Part shown: positions 4,993 to 12,192 of the stretch, piece by piece
Layout: the number at the start of each line of letters is the position of its first letter
How positions within the stretch are numbered: position 1 is the stretch's first letter
Source of the DNA: a virus
UHGV virus genome: UHGV-0093680
Length of the DNA stretch: 37,165 nucleotides
Reading direction: 5' to 3' (one strand)
Program-made: the position numbers and the translations under genes
The notes under the pieces: generated by a model
Database searches by the model: none
Told to the model about the DNA's origin: nothing
What the model saw: the letters and a program-made list of their open reading frames with translations, nothing else

Positions 4993-5102
4993 TTTGACCT
5001 CCATTTTCTGTAGGCTTCGACGGCCTCACGAAACATCTTTTCATCGCCAATAAAAGCGGCGATAGTGAATTTAGTCTGGATAGCCATAAGTGTTTTATCC
5101 AT
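4989..5102 (-). CDS. kil: Kil-like host-killing protein
   Basis: In-frame ATG within ORF 4989..5228 gives MDKTLMAIQTKFTIAAFIGDEKMFREAVEAYRKWRSK, resembling my recollection of lambda Kil; lies directly downstream of cIII as in lambda; GGAG upstream. Confidence 0.6.
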   Translation of the reverse strand: MDKTLMAIQTKFTIAAFIGDEKMFREAVEAYRKWRSK

Positions 5103-5235
5103 TCTTTGGGACTCCTGGCTGATTAAGTATGTCGATAAGGCGTTTCCATCCGTCACGTAATTTACGGGTGATTCGTTCAAGTAAAGATTCGGAAGGGCAG
5201 CCAGCAACAGGCCACCCTGCAATGGCATATTGCAT
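5095..5235 (-). CDS. cIII: CIII (FtsH inhibitor, CII stabiliser)
   Basis: In-frame ATG within ORF 5095..5337 gives MQYAIAGWPVAGCPSESLLERITRKLRDGWKRLIDILNQPGVPKNG, essentially the lambda CIII sequence as I recall it (C-terminus shorter); AAGGAG 7 nt upstream. Confidence 0.85.
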   Translation of the reverse strand: MQYAIAGWPVAGCPSESLLERITRKLRDGWKRLIDILNQPGVPKNG

Positions 5236-5296
5236 GGTGTGCTCCTTATTTATACATAACGAAAAACGCCTCGAGTGAAGCGTTATTGGTATGCAT

Positions 5297-5322
5297 ATAA
5301 AAAGGCCCTCACACTGGAGGGC
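5297..5322 (-). terminator. Rho-independent terminator (tL1-like) between the 80-aa gene and cIII
   Basis: Minus-strand hairpin GCCCUC-loop-GAGGGC followed by UUUUUAU; position matches an N-antiterminated leftward terminator. Confidence 0.55.
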
Positions 5323-5384
5323 AAAGAAGATTTCCAATAATCAGAACAAGTCGGCTCCTGTTTAGTTACGAGCGACATTGCTCC

Positions 5385-5412
5385 GTGTATTCACTCGTTG
5401 GAATGAATACAC
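5385..5412. repeat. 9-bp perfect inverted repeat GTGTATTCA-N10-TGAATACAC
   Basis: Read directly in the intergenic region between the 80-aa gene and cIII; function unknown. Confidence 0.5.
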
Positions 5413-5450
5413 AGTGCAGTGTTTATTCTGTTGTTTGTTCCAAAGTGAAT

Positions 5451-5693
5451 TTAATCAGCAATAAAATCTTCTGGTAATTTATCAACCACTTGATGGCTTA
5501 TTATCAGCCATTTGCCATCCTTCGTTTCGTATGCATATTTTTGGTCTTTTATCATCATGTGTTCAGCTACTGCCTTAACTGCCTGTTCGGTTACATCTTC
5601 TTTCTTTCCCACCCACATTCCTTTTTCAGTGTTTAATGTTCCTTGAAAAATACGACCACTTAATGGGCTTGCGCCCATAGTTTTTACTCTCAT
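5451..5693 (-). CDS. Hypothetical protein (80 aa) at the ral/ea10 position
   Basis: ORF with GAGGG 7 nt upstream of ATG; immediately downstream of the N-like gene. Confidence 0.5.
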   Translation of the reverse strand: MRVKTMGASPLSGRIFQGTLNTEKGMWVGKKEDVTEQAVKAVAEHMMIKDQKYAYETKDGKWLIISHQVVDKLPEDFIAD

Positions 5694-5753
5694 GTATCAG
5701 CCCTCAAATAAGTGGTTTGCTGCCTAATTTCATTTTCTGGCGACCAACACAAG

Positions 5754-6137
5754 TCATCTCGCCGTCAGTTGTTTTGATTTCCGGTATCCTGCTGCGTAAA
5801 GAGCTACATCTGGAAGACATACACCAGTTTCTGGTTGCTTATGTCCAAACTCATTCGCGTACACAATGGCCGCTCTCTCCAGATTGCGTCTGTATTCTTT
5901 CTGTTGCCAGATCACGTCCTGTGCCATGAACTTAATTGGCTTAGCGTCTTCTATGCGCTCAGGCGTTTCGTGAGTACCTTTAGCCTGAATCTGCGCTCTG
6001 CTTAGAGTAGGGCGGTGTAATACTTCTGAACTTATTGCTTCTTCGCGGGCCAGCACGCCGTTAGCTAATGCCTTTGCCTTTAAACGCTCACGACGACGAG
6101 AACGTGAATTGCCTTTGAACTGAGTTCTGCGTGTCAT
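5754..6137 (-). CDS. N: N-type transcription antiterminator (P22 gp24-like arginine-rich motif)
   Basis: In-frame ATG within ORF 5754..6203 (MTRRTQFKGNSRSRRRERLKAKALANG), an arginine-rich N-terminus; AGGAGG 6 nt upstream; a boxB hairpin lies in its leader. Confidence 0.75.
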   Translation of the reverse strand: MTRRTQFKGNSRSRRRERLKAKALANGVLAREEAISSEVLHRPTLSRAQIQAKGTHETPERIEDAKPIKFMAQDVIWQQKEYRRNLERAAIVYANEFGHKQPETGVCLPDVALYAAGYRKSKQLTAR

Positions 6138-6266
6138 ATGGAACCTCCTGATGAACTTTGGCGGTGAATACAGCCGGGCGACTAACTCCGGTCGCGTAAT
6201 CATTGCAAAGCGCCTCCGCCGAGAAGGTTAGCTTCTGCATTCACCCCAAAGTTCACTTTGGTTATT

Positions 6267-6281
6267 GCGCTTTGTCAGCGC
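6267..6281 (-). promoter_or_regulatory. nutL boxB hairpin
   Basis: Minus-strand GCGCUGACAAAGCGC (5-bp stem, GACAA loop); the same 13-nt core recurs in nutR at 8776-8790 and matches the P22 boxB as I recall it. Confidence 0.75.
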
Positions 6282-6350
6282 CGTAGATTCATATTCGAAT
6301 CGTTGTATATTCACCGCCCTGGTGAGTAGTGCGTCCTGCTGATGACGATA

Positions 6351-6379
6351 ATAATGAACCAATAGTTCGACATTATCAA
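6351..6379 (-). promoter_or_regulatory. Candidate pL (leftward early promoter)
   Basis: Minus-strand TTGATA - 17 nt - CATTAT, about 65 nt upstream of boxB; operator half-sites not resolved. Confidence 0.3.
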
Positions 6380-6564
6380 GAACTATTGGTACGAATTTTG
6401 GTGATTTATTAACTCTACGAAGTATGATTCTGATATATAAGGAAATTTATTTTTGAAAATGTGGCTGATGAAGGTTATGCGGCAGGGATCAGAACTGCAT
6501 GGTTTAGCGAGTTACATCAATAAATACAATTGGTTATGTGTTTTTAGGTGGGGGAGCGAGAGGC

Positions 6565-6592
6565 AAATAAAACCCGGCACTGAGGCCGGGTG
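6565..6592 (-). terminator. Rho-independent terminator (tImm-like) after the cI-cassette operon
   Basis: Minus-strand hairpin CCCGGC-loop-GCCGGG followed by UUUUAUUU, starting a few nt after the 227-aa gene stop. Confidence 0.75.
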
Positions 6593-6596
6593 TGTA

Positions 6597-7280
6597 TTAG
6601 GGGGTTGAGACTCCAGAGAGCAATCCGTAGATTTTATATACAGCAAATGCTAATGCTGGCAAGCCAAGGGCCCATTTGATTATATCAAGCTTAACATCAC
6701 TAAGCTTACCTTCTAACTTTGCCTCTTGAACAGAAAGAGCTGCATCGATCTTTTTTGATTGGGAGTCAAGGGCACTCTCAATTCTACTCGATTGTATGTC
6801 CAGACGACTGTTGATTTGTTCGTGCTGAGTAACAACTAAATGCTTCATCTCCTTTATATCTGAAGCCATTAGTTCACGCCATTTGGCCATATCAGCCTGC
6901 ATTTTTGAGGCCACTGCATCCACTTCAGCTTTATTTGCCTTCAGAAGTGCCTGTATTTCGTTTCTGCTCAAATCGGACATTGCGGTTCCCTGTATAGGAG
7001 TTTCCTCGTACGGTGGGATAACATTAGATTGTCCTTTACAATCGGCAACCCCTCCTTTATCTACGATTGTAGCAGTTAGCTGGGAATTGGTCGCATCATC
7101 CACCATGTTTTTTGGTGAATAAGAGGAAATAGGCGTAGAAAACAGATTACCTTTTGCTGTTTCCATGAACATCATGAAATCGCGAGTATTAACGTTATTC
7201 AGGGAAACTTGCAGTGGTTTAACAATACTTGATGTTTTGTAAGTAATAGTTAAATCACCTACTTCTTCCGGTTGTTGCAT
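6597..7280 (-). CDS. Unknown tail-anchored coiled-coil membrane protein (227 aa), distal gene of the cI-proximal cassette
   Basis: Long ORF; central heptad-like region (…AEVDAVASKMQADMAKWRELMASDIKEMK…) and a C-terminal hydrophobic helix (WALGLPALAFAVYKIYGLL); start overlaps the upstream stop (TAATG). Confidence 0.7.
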   Translation of the reverse strand: MQQPEEVGDLTITYKTSSIVKPLQVSLNNVNTRDFMMFMETAKGNLFSTPISSYSPKNMVDDATNSQLTATIVDKGGVADCKGQSNVIPPYEETPIQGTAMSDLSRNEIQALLKANKAEVDAVASKMQADMAKWRELMASDIKEMKHLVVTQHEQINSRLDIQSSRIESALDSQSKKIDAALSVQEAKLEGKLSDVKLDIIKWALGLPALAFAVYKIYGLLSGVSTP

Positions 7281-7612
7281 TACGACTTCGCTCCATTAGA
7301 GTTTTGTGCCTCTAATTGTTCGAAAAGAAGAACTATATTCTCCTGAAGAGCCTTTAGTTGTGCCATTGGCATTATCACAGTGCATTGCTGATTGAGTTCA
7401 TTTACAGAGCCTATCTGCATATTCGCTCTACCTGGTTGATCTGGTATATCATTTTGGGATAGTACCGCAGGTATTGACTTGTTTGCGATAAAATGTATAC
7501 AAATGAGATTTTTTTCCGCTCCCGGTAGTGGAGCAAAACTAGCGAAGTCCGCATAGGTTTCAATATAATCCACAGATGGTTTAATTTTGACCGGTTCCAT
7601 AACGCCTCTCAT
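7280..7612 (-). CDS. Unknown protein (about 107-111 aa), proximal gene of the cI-proximal cassette
   Basis: ORF 7280..7615; first ATG at 7612, with an alternative ATG at 7600 preceded by GAGAGG; no motif recognised. Confidence 0.6.
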   Translation of the reverse strand: MRGVMEPVKIKPSVDYIETYADFASFAPLPGAEKNLICIHFIANKSIPAVLSQNDIPDQPGRANMQIGSVNELNQQCTVIMPMAQLKALQENIVLLFEQLEAQNSNGAKS

Positions 7613-7617
7613 CAAAT

Positions 7618-7646
7618 ATTGTAGGTTTTTTAATTCAATGTGTTAA
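7618..7646 (-). promoter_or_regulatory. Candidate sigma70 promoter for the two-gene cassette
   Basis: Minus-strand TTAACA - 17 nt - TACAAT in the AT-rich gap between the cI stop and the cassette. Confidence 0.35.
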
Positions 7647-7723
7647 ATGTTGGTGGTGTGTTATTTAAAGTTATTTTGACATCCTCCACGCCCTGAAGGA
7701 CGGGGCTTGTCGCGTACTTGAAG

Positions 7724-8431
7724 TCACAAACTTTTCAGCCACTCCCTTGCCTCGATGTCATCCAGATGGCGAGATTGCTTCAGAATACCAGCCACATACT
7801 CCACCTTTGCTACTTGATGATAAGGCAACGTTATTGGCCTATGGTCCTGGTTGATGCTTGTAAACTGGTATTCTCCGTCTCTGTCATAGCCAAGAACCTT
7901 AATCATGTTGTGTCCTTCAACGGTTCTGACAAACACCTCATCACCCGGGAATACTTTGGTGTTAGGCTCAATGAGTACATATTCTCCTGATTTTATTCTG
8001 GGCCACATGCTGTCTCCTTTCACACGAAGGCCAAAGGCATCTGGATCATCGCTATAAATTTTGAGCCACCCATCGCGCTCTTCGGTCATCTCGATGGCAC
8101 CATCAACACCAAGAATTGCCTCACCAACCACGCGCACTAACCCTTTTTTTAATTTGCCAACAAATGAAAGAGTATCTTCATCATTCGCTCCATTTAACGA
8201 AGTGCCGTGCTGAAGCCAAACAACATCAACGTTTAGAAATTTCGCAAGCGCATTCATTTTTTCCTGACGCGGTAAAGACTCAGCATTAAACCATTTGCTA
8301 ACGCCTTTGGACGAAAGAGAAAGGGCACGGGCTATAGCCATTCCCCTACCATGTTCATCAAGACCAGCTTCTTTACAGGCTTGCGCTAGCCGCTGGGCGA
8401 ATTCTTTGCGCACTTTTTCATTCTGAACCAT
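7724..8431 (-). CDS. cI: CI-type repressor (HTH plus S24 LexA-like peptidase domain)
   Basis: N-terminal HTH region, C-terminal GDSMWP…K autocleavage motif; divergent from cro across an operator region. Confidence 0.85.
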   Translation of the reverse strand: MVQNEKVRKEFAQRLAQACKEAGLDEHGRGMAIARALSLSSKGVSKWFNAESLPRQEKMNALAKFLNVDVVWLQHGTSLNGANDEDTLSFVGKLKKGLVRVVGEAILGVDGAIEMTEERDGWLKIYSDDPDAFGLRVKGDSMWPRIKSGEYVLIEPNTKVFPGDEVFVRTVEGHNMIKVLGYDRDGEYQFTSINQDHRPITLPYHQVAKVEYVAGILKQSRHLDDIEAREWLKSL

Positions 8432-8509
8432 GAGTACGATACTAAAGCACTTGCAAAAACTTTCAGTTCAATCATAATGCGTACTGAAAGTACGAAAAAG
8501 GATATCCCT
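8432..8509. promoter_or_regulatory. OR region with divergent pR and pRM
   Basis: Plus-strand TTGCAA - 16 nt - CATAAT upstream of cro; minus-strand TAGTAT about 7 nt before the cI ATG, implying a leaderless cI mRNA as in lambda; repeated GTAC/ACTTTCAGT-type motifs are likely operator half-sites. Confidence 0.5.
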
Positions 8510-8737
8510 ATGCAAAATCTTGATGAGCCGATTAAAGGTGTCGGCATCCCTGAAGTTGCGAAGGCTTGTGGAGTTAGCGAAAGAGCTGTCTATAAGTGGC
8601 TCAAAAACGGCTTCCTCCCTAAGACTGAGTTTTTTGGGAAAACGAAATACGCATCAAAAATCGAAGAGATTTCTGGTGGCAAATATCAAGCAAGCGAAAT
8701 GCTTGAAATAAGCAAAAAGAACCTTCTGGCTGCATAA
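8510..8737 (+). CDS. cro: Cro-like repressor
   Basis: In-frame ATG within ORF 8477..8737 (MQNLDEPIKGVGIPEVAKACGVSERAVYKWLKNG, an HTH); AAGGA 7 nt upstream; about 75 aa. Confidence 0.75.
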   Translation: MQNLDEPIKGVGIPEVAKACGVSERAVYKWLKNGFLPKTEFFGKTKYASKIEEISGGKYQASEMLEISKKNLLAA

Positions 8738-8775
8738 GTAACACCGCTATTTTCACAATGGACATTCGTCCTACG

Positions 8776-8790
8776 TCGCTGACAAAGCGA
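8776..8790 (+). promoter_or_regulatory. nutR boxB hairpin
   Basis: TCGCTGACAAAGCGA between cro and cII; same loop and stem core as nutL; a possible boxA (CGCTATTTT) lies about 22 nt upstream. Confidence 0.7.
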
Positions 8791-8875
8791 GTCCCAATAT
8801 ATCTGACCAACTAAGGCCATATGCGTTTCCACGCATACCTTTCAACTAACTATTCACTATTGGAAATCTTAAAAA

Positions 8876-9172
8876 ATGGAACAAACAAGTTACAGCAAAC
8901 TATCACAGCGCGACGTTGATCGCGCAGAAACAGATTTACTCATCAACCTGTCAACGCTTACCCAGCGCGGTCTGGCAAAGATGATTGGCTGTCATGAATC
9001 GAAGATAAGCAGAACGGACTGGAGATTTATTGCTTCGGTCTTGTGTGCTTTCGGAATGGCATCAGACATCAGTCCGATTAGCAGGGCTTTTAAGTATGCG
9101 CTTGATGAAATCACAAAGAAAAAATCCCCGGCTGCCACCGAGGATTTTAAGCAAATTGATATGCAATTCTGA
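8876..9172 (+). CDS. cII: CII-like transcriptional activator
   Basis: C-terminus [18 protein letters not shown] resembles lambda CII (…KKRPAATERSEQIQMEF) and a central HTH; position after cro and nutR. Confidence 0.8.
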
Positions 9173-9204
9173 GGGAATTACTGGATCAATCCACAGGAGT
9201 AATT

Positions 9205-9351
9205 ATGACAAAACAACTCAGTCCTTACCAGGACAAAATTCACAAACACATACTACGTGATCGCTTCCTGTCCAGCTTCAAGCAGCCTGGTCGATTCCGG
9301 GCTGAGTTGGAAAAAGTGAAGCTGATGCAGAAGGAGAAAGGTCATGAGTAA
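9205..9351 (+). CDS. Small ORF (48 aa) between cII and the O-like gene
   Basis: Not in the ORF track (under 60 aa); ATG 4 nt after AGGAG; overlaps the O start by 8 nt; a 48-codon ORF occupies this position in P22 as I recall. Confidence 0.4.
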
Positions 9352-10204
9352 TCTTGCAACCGTAACACATTTAAGGCCCTCACAACGGCCTGTGGAGCGT
9401 CGTGTGGCAGAAGTTGAAGATGGTTATACCCGTCTTGCAAATGCCCTGTATGAAGAGCTTATCGGCGCAGATTTAACAAAAAATCAGAGCAAGGTTGCCC
9501 ACGCCATATGCCGTAAAACATACGGATACGGTAAAAAGATGGATCGCATCTCTGATAGTCAGTTAGCTCAAATTACCAGGCTGCCAAGACAGAAGGTAAA
9601 CAAGGCCAAGAATGAGCTTATCGCGATGAAGGTAATCCTTCGCGAAGGCCAGCAAATCGGGCCTAACAAGAACATCGAGGAATGGCAAATCGAAGGGTGT
9701 CACTACTCTGGTGATAATGTCACTGCATTGGTGACAAAAAGTGTCACCAAAACGGTGACAGCGCTGTCACCAAAACAGGGACACACAAAAGAAACTATTA
9801 CAAAAGAAAAAAGAAATAATAAAAACACTATGTCCGAAAGTGTTCGGACGGAGTGTGAAAAATCATCTGACCGTCACGAAGAAACCGACAAGGCATTCGA
9901 GGAAATATTCTGGTGTGCAGGCATGCGGAAAGCCGGGAAAAAAAACGCAGCTTCGGCATTCAGAACACAGTTCAGGGAATGGCGTAAAACTACCAGGGGT
10001 ACGGCAAGCGAGTTTGCCACGATGCTGGCAGAAGACATCGCATGCAGGAATGGTAAGCAGTTCGGATTCGACAGGTTGTTACCATCGAGCTACTTGAACG
10101 GTCAGCGCTGGAACGACGAAAAGCCAGAAACCATTCAACCACAATCCAAACCATCATCCGCAATCACCGTATCGAAAACTGGCTACGTGTTTTTCGACAG
10201 GTGA
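9344..10204 (+). CDS. Replication initiator, lambda O-like
   Basis: N-terminal region ([56 protein letters not shown]…GPNKNIEEW) aligns by eye with lambda O; iterons lie inside the gene. Confidence 0.85.
9700..9830 (+). repeat. Replication origin: iterons plus AT-rich tract inside the O-like gene
   Basis: Repeated GGTGACA / TGTCACCAAAAC units around 9705-9785, followed by an A/T-rich stretch; same arrangement as the lambda ori. Confidence 0.7.
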
Positions 10205-10311: not shown

Positions 10312-12192
10312 ATGAGGCCAAGTGAACTTAGCGACCTGCTTTGGGCGCAGGTTGACAGGGTGGCTCCGCACCTGTTGCCAAATGGCAAGAAAGAGGGGCA
10401 TGAGTGGGTTGCCGGTAACGTCAACGGTGACAAGGGAAACAGCCTTAAGGTCAACCTTAGCGGCAAGAAAAAATGGGCTGATTTCGCTGAGGGAGACGGC
10501 GGTGACATGCTTGATTTGTGGATGGCATGTCGTGGAATTAACCTGCATCAGGCTATGCAGGAAGCGAAAGCATTTCTCGGTATCAAGGATGACGATCACC
10601 ATTTCGATGCCAGACGTGAGAAGAAATTCTCCAGACCTGATCGCAAGAAAATCGCCCGCTACGTTACCAGAACAGAATCCCATCTTGAGTACCTGCAATC
10701 GCGTGGCATATCGCCAGAAATCGTAAAGCGCTACGAGGTTGTCAGCGGCAAGGTGTGGAATGGAGAGCGGGAACTGGATGCTCTGGTGATTCCGTACAAA
10801 CGCGATGGTGAGTTGTTGCAGGTCAAGCGAATCAGCACTGAGCGCCCGGACGGGAAGAAAGTCATTATGGCAGAAGGTGATTGCGAACCTTGCCTGTTCG
10901 GATGGCAGGCTCTGGACGCTGGCGTGAGGGCGGTTGTGCTTTGCGAAGGCGAAATTGATTGTATGAGCTATGCGCAATACGGCATCTCGGCGTTATCCGT
11001 GCCGTTTGGTGGCGGGAAAGGCGCTAAGCAACAGTGGATTGAGTTTGAGTATCACAACCTCGACAGGTTTGAGGAAATATTCATCTCGATGGACGTTGAT
11101 GATGTTGGTCGTGAAGCCGCAAGGGAAATCGCAAGCCGACTCGGTGAACATCGTTGCCGTCTTGTTACTCTGCCGTACAAAGACATCAACGAATGCCTGA
11201 TGAACGGTGTTACCGAGGATGAAATCTGGCAGTACATCGGCACGGCATCCTACTTCGATCCTGAAGAACTCTACAGCGCGCGAGAGTTTTACCAGGACAC
11301 TATCAACGCTTTCTACGGCAAGCAGCAGTATCTGTTTAATCCACCGTGGGAATCTCTGGCAGATAAATTCCAGTTCCGTGAGGCAGAGTTGACGCTGGTC
11401 AATGGGGTGAACGGTCACGGAAAAACGGAGGTTGTCGGGCATATGGCACTTGAGGCAATGCGTCAGGGTGTGAAGACGTGCATCGCGTCACTTGAGCTGA
11501 AGCCTGGTATTCTCCTTAAGCGCCTTACCCGTCAGGCGACGTGCTGCAAGATGCCGCCAGTGCTGGAAATTGACTCTGCATTTAAATTTTATGACGAAAG
11601 ACTTTGGGTGTTTGGCCTGACCGGAACGGCGAAAGCCGACAGGCTGATCGAAATATTCGACTACGCTCGCCGCCGATACGGGATCCAGTTATTCATCATC
11701 GACAGCCTGATGAAATGTGGCATAGGCGACGATGACTATAACGGGCAGAAGGCGTTTGTTGACTCGATTTGCGACTTCAAAAACAAAACAAACTCCCACG
11801 TCATTCTCGTTACTCACTCGCGAAAAGGAGACAGCGAAGAAAAACCAACCGGGAAAATGGACGTAAAAGGCTCTGGAGCGATAACAGACCTGACAGACAA
11901 CCTTTTTATCATCTGGCGTAACAAGGCTCGCGAGAGAGCGTTACAGAGAGTTCAAAGCGGTGAACAGATGTCAGAGAAGGACGAACAGCTACTGGTGTCT
12001 CCGGCATCTGTTTTGATGCTTGAAAAACAACGTAACGGCGAAGGTTGGGAAGGTGGTGTCCCGTTGTTCCTTGACGAGCAATCGCACCAGTTCCTGCAAC
12101 TTGAATCAGGATCGCCATATAGCTACATCGCCAATATGCCGAAATCGGAATATGACGAGGCGTGGCGACAGGAAAACGTGACGGAGTATTAA
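10312..12192 (+). CDS. Primase-helicase fusion (TOPRIM primase plus RecA-fold helicase)
   Basis: TOPRIM-like VVLCEGEIDCMSYAQYG, Walker A GVNGHGKT and Walker B-like IIDSLMK; 626 aa, directly downstream of the O-like gene. Confidence 0.8.
   Translation: MRPSELSDLLWAQVDRVAPHLLPNGKKEGHEWVAGNVNGDKGNSLKVNLSGKKKWADFAEGDGGDMLDLWMACRGINLHQAMQEAKAFLGIKDDDHHFDARREKKFSRPDRKKIARYVTRTESHLEYLQSRGISPEIVKRYEVVSGKVWNGERELDALVIPYKRDGELLQVKRISTERPDGKKVIMAEGDCEPCLFGWQALDAGVRAVVLCEGEIDCMSYAQYGISALSVPFGGGKGAKQQWIEFEYHNLDRFEEIFISMDVDDVGREAAREIASRLGEHRCRLVTLPYKDINECLMNGVTEDEIWQYIGTASYFDPEELYSAREFYQDTINAFYGKQQYLFNPPWESLADKFQFREAELTLVNGVNGHGKTEVVGHMALEAMRQGVKTCIASLELKPGILLKRLTRQATCCKMPPVLEIDSAFKFYDERLWVFGLTGTAKADRLIEIFDYARRRYGIQLFIIDSLMKCGIGDDDYNGQKAFVDSICDFKNKTNSHVILVTHSRKGDSEEKPTGKMDVKGSGAITDLTDNLFIIWRNKARERALQRVQSGEQMSEKDEQLLVSPASVLMLEKQRNGEGWEGGVPLFLDEQSHQFLQLESGSPYSYIANMPKSEYDEAWRQENVTEY

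Follow-up and report, generated by a model that had tools for sequence, protein, structure and literature searches.

A two-gene cassette behind the repressor of virus genome UHGV-0093680: a candidate phage-exclusion system of lambdoid prophages

Which genes lie between cI, the repressor gene, and the immunity terminator of the virus genome UHGV-0093680, and what might they do for a lysogen? The stretch of DNA analyzed here, referred to as the window, is 37,165 nucleotides (nt) long, and all positions are window coordinates. The interval between cI and N is a mosaic hotspot with rexAB and bstA among its occupants (PMC8585504), and rexAB, stk and the hex gene of phage 434 are exclusion genes co-transcribed from the repressor promoter pRM (PMC3564112). 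In the window, the interval holds a mobile two-gene accessory cassette of lambdoid prophages. We consider that this cassette encodes a lysogen-expressed, two-component system for heterotypic phage exclusion or abortive infection with a probability of about 50%. An earlier annotation, made from the letters of the DNA and called here the sequence-only reading, had singled out the same pair of genes.

Both genes of the cassette are on the minus strand.
7280..7600, minus strand: small (partner) gene, of partner class A, 106 amino acids (aa) from the ATG at 7600
7605..7610, minus strand: Shine-Dalgarno sequence GAGAGG of the small gene, 4 nt before ATG 7600, read from the sequence
6597..7280, minus strand: large gene, 227 aa, predicted CCDC90/DUF1640-like tail-anchored coiled-coil protein

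The list of open reading frames (ORFs) and the sequence confirmed that the two genes are arranged as a coupled pair. The stop codon of the small gene (7282-7280) overlaps the ATG of the large gene (7280-7278) as TAATG (T7282-G7278), and a GGAG is located 9 nt ahead of the large-gene ATG; the two genes are translationally coupled. In the ORF list, the small gene is read from a TTG and covers 7280..7615 on the minus strand (111 aa). The ATG at 7600 is the likely true start, giving a protein of 106 aa, because GAGAGG lies upstream of it and because RefSeq annotates the identical gene as 321 nt. The leader of the small gene, ATTTGRTGAGAGG, is kept in the Yersinia loci.

We compared both genes with diverged relatives. 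Synonymous sites were saturated, with a proportion of synonymous differences (pS) of 0.75-0.87, while the proportion of nonsynonymous differences (pN) was 0.06-0.13 in the C-terminal half of the large protein and 0.23-0.30 in the small protein. These values indicate that purifying selection acts on both genes and that both are real genes. It was conceivable that the pair represents chance ORFs or decaying remnants without function, as the small protein has no family in the curated libraries and very few homologues. However, pN far under pS in both genes excludes a spurious-ORF reading, the coupled pair is conserved across five genera, and the AlphaFold2 (AF2) models of both proteins contain confident folded regions. 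A functionless pair is thus extremely improbable. Plus-strand ORFs within the cassette region, at 6883-7122 and elsewhere, were treated as spurious, as was a 44-aa ORF spanning the terminator (6512-6646).

The setting of the cassette was analyzed by comparison with the Shiga toxin (Stx) phage 933W, using the following features.
7724..8431, minus strand: cI repressor (helix-turn-helix plus S24 peptidase; Pfam PF00717 at 4e-16, PF01381), the upstream gene of the operon
6591..7718, minus strand: exchanged cassette, 1128 bp, with no counterpart in 933W (blastn against 933W)
6562..6591, minus strand: intrinsic terminator ACCCGGC-CTCAGT-GCCGGGT followed by UUUUAUUU, -13.4 kcal/mol, z -2.2 (terminator scan and fold)

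The window cI is identical to the 933W cI at 234 of 234 residues (BLASTP, 100%). Using blastn, we found that the homology between the window and 933W extends from N through base 6590, in the terminator, and is resumed at 7719, five bases past the cI stop. At the position of the cassette, 933W holds 2133 bp that contain L0084-L0083-stk-L0081. There is thus a clean cassette swap between the cI stop and the terminator tM in an otherwise identical immunity region, and the terminator is also the left recombination boundary of the cassette. In 933W, stk is co-transcribed with cI, and Stk aborts HK97 infection (PMC3564112). A second replacement was found in phage HK542, which has a lambda-like cI, pRM and pL and in which a related cassette (of partner class B, below) is located exactly where lambda has rexAB. 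The sequence-only reading had placed the pair directly after cI and before pL/nutL; the two replacements strengthened the argument from this position. Since the cassette replaces the stk block behind an identical cI and a related cassette replaces rexAB in another phage background, the exchange argues for an exclusion role of the cassette.

The large protein was divided into three parts.
7143..7280, minus strand: N-terminal head, aa 1-46, predicted beta-beta-alpha, predicted local distance difference test (pLDDT) score 81-86 over residues 11-40 (AF2)
6873..6980, minus strand: nearly invariant motif MSDLSRNEIQALLKANKAEVDAVASKMQADMAKWRE (aa 101-136) where the stalk begins, taken from the invariant columns of the family alignment
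6618..6686, minus strand: C-terminal hydrophobic helix DIIKWALGLPALAFAVYKIYGLL, aa 199-221, followed by six residues

The sequence-only reading had assigned neither protein to a known family, and this held for the small protein but not for the large one. The large protein matches PHROG 14825 (function not assigned) at 8e-129. It also matches PF07798 (CCDC90-like, formerly DUF1640) over residues 106-214 with 28.1 bits (E 2e-6), which misses the gathering threshold of 33.5. All 26 relatives likewise match PF07798 below threshold over profile positions 63-167 (best E 6.9e-7, about 30 bits), and the RefSeq labels on the protein itself and on some relatives are "CCDC90 family protein" or "DUF1640 domain-containing protein." The head has no match to PF07798, profile positions 1-62 being unaligned. 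The large protein is a distant DUF1640/CCDC90-like relative in its stalk and anchor only and is not a member by the Pfam threshold.

In the AF2 model (pLDDT 72), the large protein has beta strands at residues 7-14 and 23-31, a helix at 32-46, a disordered segment at 48-98 and a single uninterrupted helix at 103-221. The model agrees with the coiled coil and the single C-terminal helix described earlier, although the hydrophobicity of that helix turned out to be moderate. The stalk-start consensus in the family alignment is MSDLNRNEIQALLKANKAEVDAVASxMQADMAKWRE, and aa 101-136 are the region in common with the HK542 protein. The DUF1640 stalk starts with a beta-layer motif, [aliphatic]-A-T-K-[polar]-[DE] (PMC4786415). 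By inspection only, K-A-N-K-A-E at residues 114-119 agrees with this motif at 3 of 6 positions (A, K and E), with N replacing T. In the 26-sequence alignment, K117 and E119 are invariant and N116 is nearly so. The stalk of one subgroup has an 11-residue indel.

The hydrophobic maximum of the protein is at residues 196-222, and the consensus of the C-terminal helix is DIIKWALGLPALAFxVYKIYG. Eleven positions (I200, I201, W203, L205, G206, P208, A209, L210, F212, K216 and Y218) are invariant across the 26 sequences, and the helix seems to be conserved far beyond the needs of a passive anchor. The topology was deduced from Kyte-Doolittle hydropathy and the AF2 model. A C-terminal hydrophobic helix with a six-residue tail points to a tail anchor, which implies an N-in protein with nearly all of its mass predicted to be in the cytoplasm. 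A search of the family profile against Protein Data Bank (PDB) sequences returned nothing at an E of 1 or below; apolipoprotein A-IV, at E 1.1, was taken as helical-repeat noise. The structural check proposed in the earlier annotation, a Foldseek search of the large model against the PDB, gave only matches with an E above 2. Two uncharacterized phage proteins in BFVD, with a TM-score of about 0.58, were uninformative.

The architecture of the large protein raises the question of whether the cassette is a host-fitness gene pair, in which a membrane-tethered scaffold or stress protein alters the envelope or ribosome physiology of the lysogen. The E. coli proteins ElaB, YqjD and YgaM are tail-anchored coiled-coil proteins that could serve as analogues, and MCUR1 and CCDC90B have a scaffold role. 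The sub-threshold similarity to PF07798 in all 26 members, the cytoplasmic coiled coil with a C-terminal anchor, and the failure of PADLOC to find a defence family are consistent with this explanation. However, in the loci examined the pair was found only inside prophage immunity regions, the rapid turnover of head and partner classes described below is more typical of an arms race than of a housekeeping interaction, and the cassette is exchanged with abortive-infection cassettes. We regard a host-fitness role as distinctly unlikely.

The small protein is acidic (pI 4.75), and any hydrophobic segments in it are too short to form a membrane helix. Its predicted fold is beta3-alpha, with strands at residues 19-24, 32-51 and 59-78 and a helix at 79-101, and weakly resembles the COMM domains of COMMD proteins. 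The earlier description of a protein without a recognizable motif stood, as no match was found in Pfam, PHROGs, NCBIfam or PADLOC, while its length of 107-111 aa is likely to be 106 aa from ATG 7600. About 13 full-length clusters were found in 5.8 billion proteins, and an exhaustive profile search of 1.84 billion representatives returned 18 relatives, all of which are stand-alone proteins (full-length 85-116 aa, plus a few short fragments). The small protein belongs to a tiny orphan family. An origin of partner and head by internal duplication was rejected, as hhalign detected no similarity between the small partner and the head of the large protein.

To describe the family as a whole, we used loci from exact-protein look-ups, an IMG/VR scan, one phage record and one plasmid record, and scored their ORFs with hidden Markov models built from our own alignments. 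In 33 of 33 loci, an S24-type repressor gene is followed on one strand by a partner gene and a gene for a CCDC90-like protein. The 33 loci include near-identical copies and correspond to about a dozen distinct cassette variants in at least five genera. Their sources are E. coli, Klebsiella, Yersinia and Serratia, an IncC plasmid of Providencia, IMG/VR, and unassigned contigs from metagenomes. The loci vary in repressor allele, replication module and N gene, and in the loci examined the pair was seen only in prophage immunity regions and never in chromosomal housekeeping contexts. An intrinsic terminator is located 3' of the large gene in all 11 loci displayed. The ACCCGGC/GCCGGGT stem is kept in 9 of these 11, including HK542, Yersinia and Serratia, and the Klebsiella loci L009 and L010 have a different GC-rich hairpin and T-run after the large gene.

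The partners of the CCDC90-like proteins fall into at least three classes. Class A, to which the window belongs, consists of proteins of 94-111 aa, divergent members included. Class B partners, of about 143 aa, are found in HK542, Serratia and others and are 35-39% identical among themselves. Class C partners have about 118 aa and a CxxC...CxxC pattern (a putative zinc ribbon); this class was separated from the others by eye and because it matched neither the class A nor the class B profile. The class C loci are L028 (about 2480-2835) and L031 (about 2480-2844), and the paired CCDC90-like proteins are short-headed (168-172 aa). No similarity between classes A and B was detectable by BLASTP or hhalign, and the small protein of the window had no BLASTP match to the 144-aa partner of HK542. 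Against PADLOC and Pfam, the class B, class C and divergent A' partners and the distant large relatives gave only weak, non-significant matches such as coiled coils produce by chance. Some class B cassettes have an extra small ORF between cI and the partner gene (L012:3294-3506, L013:2947-3159 and L011:3415-3513). One of these encodes 70 aa with a sub-threshold match to DUF2116, "probable treble clef" (E 4e-4), and the extra ORF in Serratia encodes a 32-aa YoaK-like peptide.

When the closer members of class A are compared, identity is highest in the stalk and hydrophobic helix (78-91%), lower in the partner (43-62%) and the head (32-50%), and lowest in the linker (13-26%). Identities for the divergent L010 pair are below these ranges, those of the head to L010 being 20-36%. 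Across the family, the N terminus of the large protein changes with the partner class, short or different heads going with class B and class C partners, while the stalk and hydrophobic helix persist. The alignments suggest that head and partner are swapped together on a constant stalk and helix. A conserved stalk and helix with a variable head and partner is a modularity typical of sensor-effector systems, and this pattern, together with the synteny with an S24 repressor in every locus, favors the exclusion role. A broader possibility, which we put forward tentatively and at less than even odds, is that the cassette is the first example of a modular, so far unrecognized family of repressor-linked prophage defence systems, in which a CCDC90-like membrane effector is combined with interchangeable partners (beta3-alpha, 143-aa or zinc-ribbon) that set which phages are sensed.

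The co-variation of the partner with the head of the membrane protein would also be expected of an addiction or toxin-antitoxin-like module that stabilizes the prophage, in which a holin-like membrane toxin is checked by the small acidic protein and exclusion is secondary. The small-then-large gene order with a 1-nt stop/start overlap, the acidity of the small protein and the strong conservation of the hydrophobic helix agree with such a module. On the other hand, the small protein lacks any fold or motif of a DNA-binding antitoxin, neither protein matched known toxin-antitoxin families in Pfam, PHROGs, NCBIfam or PADLOC, and the membrane helix is only moderately hydrophobic. We therefore think a toxin-antitoxin module quite improbable; it also overlaps mechanistically with abortive infection and is not exclusive of it.

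The distribution of the cassette was examined in sequenced genomes. The cassette is present in 40 of 5426 complete E. coli genomes and absent from all sequenced phages of the INPHARED set. A nucleotide-identical cassette is located in an E. coli prophage next to sbcB that has another N gene and has sieB close by, and five IMG/VR contigs carry cassettes that are identical or differ by 1-2 bases. In one of these five, locus L019, the repressor (1853-2557) is chimeric: the linker and S24 domain are nearly identical to the 933W cI from about residue 88, and the N-terminal DNA-binding domain is different. The chimeric cI is followed by an identical cassette, which suggests recombination inside cI. 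Identical copies in different prophage backbones and behind a chimeric cI suggest that the cassette was recently mobile. The Providencia locus (L034; NZ_OY979118.1, 193299-201502) is on a 240-kb Providencia stuartii IncC conjugative plasmid that carries a lambdoid prophage-like immunity and replication region, with a repressor, a 100-aa partner and a 222-aa CCDC90-like protein in this order.

The constant association with S24 repressors could also reflect control of lysogeny or induction, in which the cassette acts on the repressor circuit itself and not on foreign phages, for example by limiting RecA-stimulated cI cleavage or by coupling the state of the envelope to induction, like 434 Hex in its second role. 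The linkage in all 33 loci, very divergent members included, and the recombination in L019, which retained the S24 domain with the cassette and swapped the DNA-binding domain, are in line with this explanation; Hex, likewise co-transcribed from pRM, reduces induction (PMC3564112). Nevertheless, rexAB, stk and bstA are equally linked to the repressor merely through the shared promoter. In addition, the partner classes change while the S24 domains stay similar, the repressors belong to several families, and it is hard to see how a tail-anchored coiled coil would reach cI or RecA. We consider a role in induction control to be unlikely.

The exclusion reading thus rests on the replacement of known exclusion genes, the repressor synteny and the modularity, and is further favored by the translational coupling, the conserved terminator, the purifying selection, the unusually conserved helix and the recent mobility. 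Several observations weigh against it. Using PADLOC-DB v2.0.0 (2023), the defence search suggested in the earlier annotation, we found no defence model matched by either protein or by the other partner classes, the weak, non-significant matches having an E of at least 4.6e-5. No nuclease, NTPase, kinase or other catalytic motif was found in the cassette, and in the literature on DUF1640/CCDC90 proteins and phages, HK542/HK244, hotspots in immunity regions and tail-anchored exclusion proteins we found no paper that assigns a function to the cassette family or to the HK542/HK244 homologues. The C-terminal helix has a maximum Kyte-Doolittle 19-residue score of 1.49 and contains two lysines. The large protein, as a distant DUF1640/CCDC90-like relative, is not without a family. 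Moreover, the location is circumstantial evidence, since genes downstream of cI can serve other roles, and 434 Hex, an exclusion function, also lowers prophage induction (PMC3564112).

The regulatory signals that had been credited to the cassette itself are among these contrary points. The hairpin is real, but the terminator belongs to the whole immunity operon and is not private to the cassette: it is the site annotated tM, "terminator for pM transcript," in 933W and is equivalent to tIMM of lambda. The claimed promoter is the following site.
7618..7646, minus strand: promoter-like site TTAACA-17-TACAAT, 10 of 12 matches, best of the region, an unproven candidate internal promoter
While the site is present, the promoter scan found 5 sites in the region against a mean of 5.0 in shuffled sequences, so that it is not statistically distinctive. 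In addition, only 45 nt separate cI from the partner gene in the Klebsiella homologue, which counts against an own promoter. The unsupported internal promoter and the short Klebsiella gap make co-transcription from the repressor promoter the safer conclusion. The spacer between cI and the cassette showed no significant RNA structure, attenuator or terminator (RNA fold, z -0.09), and an Rfam scan of 5000-9500 found no RNA element within the cassette. By analogy with the cI-rexA-rexB-tIMM operon of lambda and the pM-cI-stk-tM operon of 933W, the pair is most likely expressed from pRM or the equivalent repressor promoter.

If the exclusion reading is correct, the lysogen would express the cassette as the last part of the repressor operon, in the order pRM/pM, cI, partner, CCDC90-like protein and tM, possibly with an additional internal promoter. 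The C-terminal helix would anchor the 227-aa protein in the inner membrane and leave nearly all of the protein on the cytoplasmic side. By analogy with DUF1640/CCDC90 proteins, the coiled coil would assemble into a parallel and probably trimeric stalk, to which the small variable head is attached through a disordered tether. Specificity would come from the 106-aa beta3-alpha partner, which would bind to the head. A cue from an infecting phage would change the state of the complex. The unusually conserved membrane helices would in turn permeabilize the membrane, as in the Rex system, or block genome entry or another early membrane-associated step. Since the predicted mass is almost entirely cytoplasmic, we consider sensing of the trigger inside the cell more likely than a block in the periplasm. 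The sensor and effector roles are ones that we infer, and the layout of a cytosolic partner plus a membrane protein fits the family-wide pattern of swappable heads and partners. A lysis-gene reading (XhlA, holin or spanin-like) was dropped, as the cassette belongs to the immunity operon, a long way from the lysis genes, and the protein is predicted to face the cytoplasm.

The window around the cassette is a mosaic. The region of N, tM, cI, cro and cII is 90-98% identical to 933W, and positions 12200-37165 are P22/CUS-3-like podovirus morphogenesis DNA, so that a 933W-type immunity module is located in a different virion background. No stx-related similarity was found in the window parts examined. 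The nearest gene beyond the terminator is N.
5754..6203, minus strand: N gene (PF25694)
As listed, the N ORF has 149 aa from its first ATG, 22 codons beyond the MTRRTQ start of the 127-aa 933W N, and the shorter form is probably the real one. Between tM and N, where pL is expected, there is a promoter-like TTGATA-17-CATTAT at 6351-6379 on the minus strand, and the adjoining segment 6400-6590 shares 96% identity with 933W and with many further Stx phages. A strong match to the lambda cIII thermoregulator RNA element (Rfam RF01804) was found in the cIII leader region at 5190-5248 on the minus strand, with 88.5 bits where the gathering score is 50. On the plus strand, a 626-aa ORF at 10312-12192, which follows a 286-aa ORF at 9344-10204, looks primase/helicase-fusion-like and not like a lambda-type O/P, as judged by sequence alone.

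Among the known systems, RexA/RexB resembles the cassette in arrangement, with two genes directly after cI in a pRM operon that ends at the immunity terminator, and with a cytoplasmic protein and a membrane protein. However, neither protein matched RexA or RexB in PADLOC, Pfam or NCBIfam. RexA has about 279 aa and RexB about 144 aa, compared with 106 and 227 aa for the cassette proteins, and RexB is a polytopic membrane protein, while the large cassette protein combines a long coiled coil with a single helix at its C terminus. The stk block of 933W shares the insertion point but differs from the cassette in size and wholly in gene content, has no nucleotide homology to it, and encodes a kinase, whereas the Pfam scan found no kinase family in the cassette. 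BstA of the Salmonella phage BTP1 occupies the same slot after cI, is expressed in the lysogen and shows "strikingly conserved" synteny with the repressor (PMC8585504). In contrast to the cassette, BstA is a single soluble protein found at phage replication sites, and the lack of a match to BstA claimed earlier, like that to RexA and RexB, held in the Pfam and PADLOC scans.

The HK542/HK244 pair (HK542_035, 144 aa, and a 206-aa protein) has the same coupled layout, post-cI position and terminator as the cassette and is annotated only as hypothetical proteins. The second HK542 gene is a true homologue of the large gene, its product being 30% identical over the conserved motif and stalk (pairwise E 1e-11). 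The pair differs in its class B partner and in a periplasmic extension of the large protein past the hydrophobic helix. DUF1640/CCDC90-like proteins (PF07798), including mitochondrial MCUR1 and CCDC90B, have the same architecture of head, coiled-coil stalk and C-terminal membrane helix; the cassette family differs in that all members are sub-threshold, the head is unmatched and the profile search found no solved structure. The eukaryotic members are mitochondrial scaffold factors, and we found no bacterial or phage function for such proteins in the literature. If the exclusion reading is true, it would provide the first function for a bacterial relative of the MCUR1/CCDC90B family. Should the cassette have no part in defence, the fact that it is invariably linked to S24 repressors would instead suggest that lysogeny is controlled at a further, so far unrecognized level.

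A parallel in composition is gp30/gp31 of mycobacteriophage Butters, a prophage-expressed two-component defence with interacting cytoplasmic and membrane proteins (PMC7542560). Its sequence, host and genome position are unrelated to those of the cassette, and the comparison is by analogy only. The cassette family is found in clinical E. coli, Klebsiella, Yersinia, Serratia and Providencia with modular partners. Knowledge of its function would help to predict phage-therapy host range in lysogens and would inform Stx-type immunity regions, as the cassette travels together with 933W immunity. Another candidate system in a prophage hotspot is by now no surprise per se, but the comparative evidence is unusually clean here. 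Taken together, the comparisons suggest that the cassette represents a previously uncharacterized occupant family of a well-known repressor-proximal accessory slot. After RexAB, Stk and BstA, a fourth unrelated occupant of the cI-N interval would be a strong and cheaply testable candidate for a membrane-level anti-phage mechanism.

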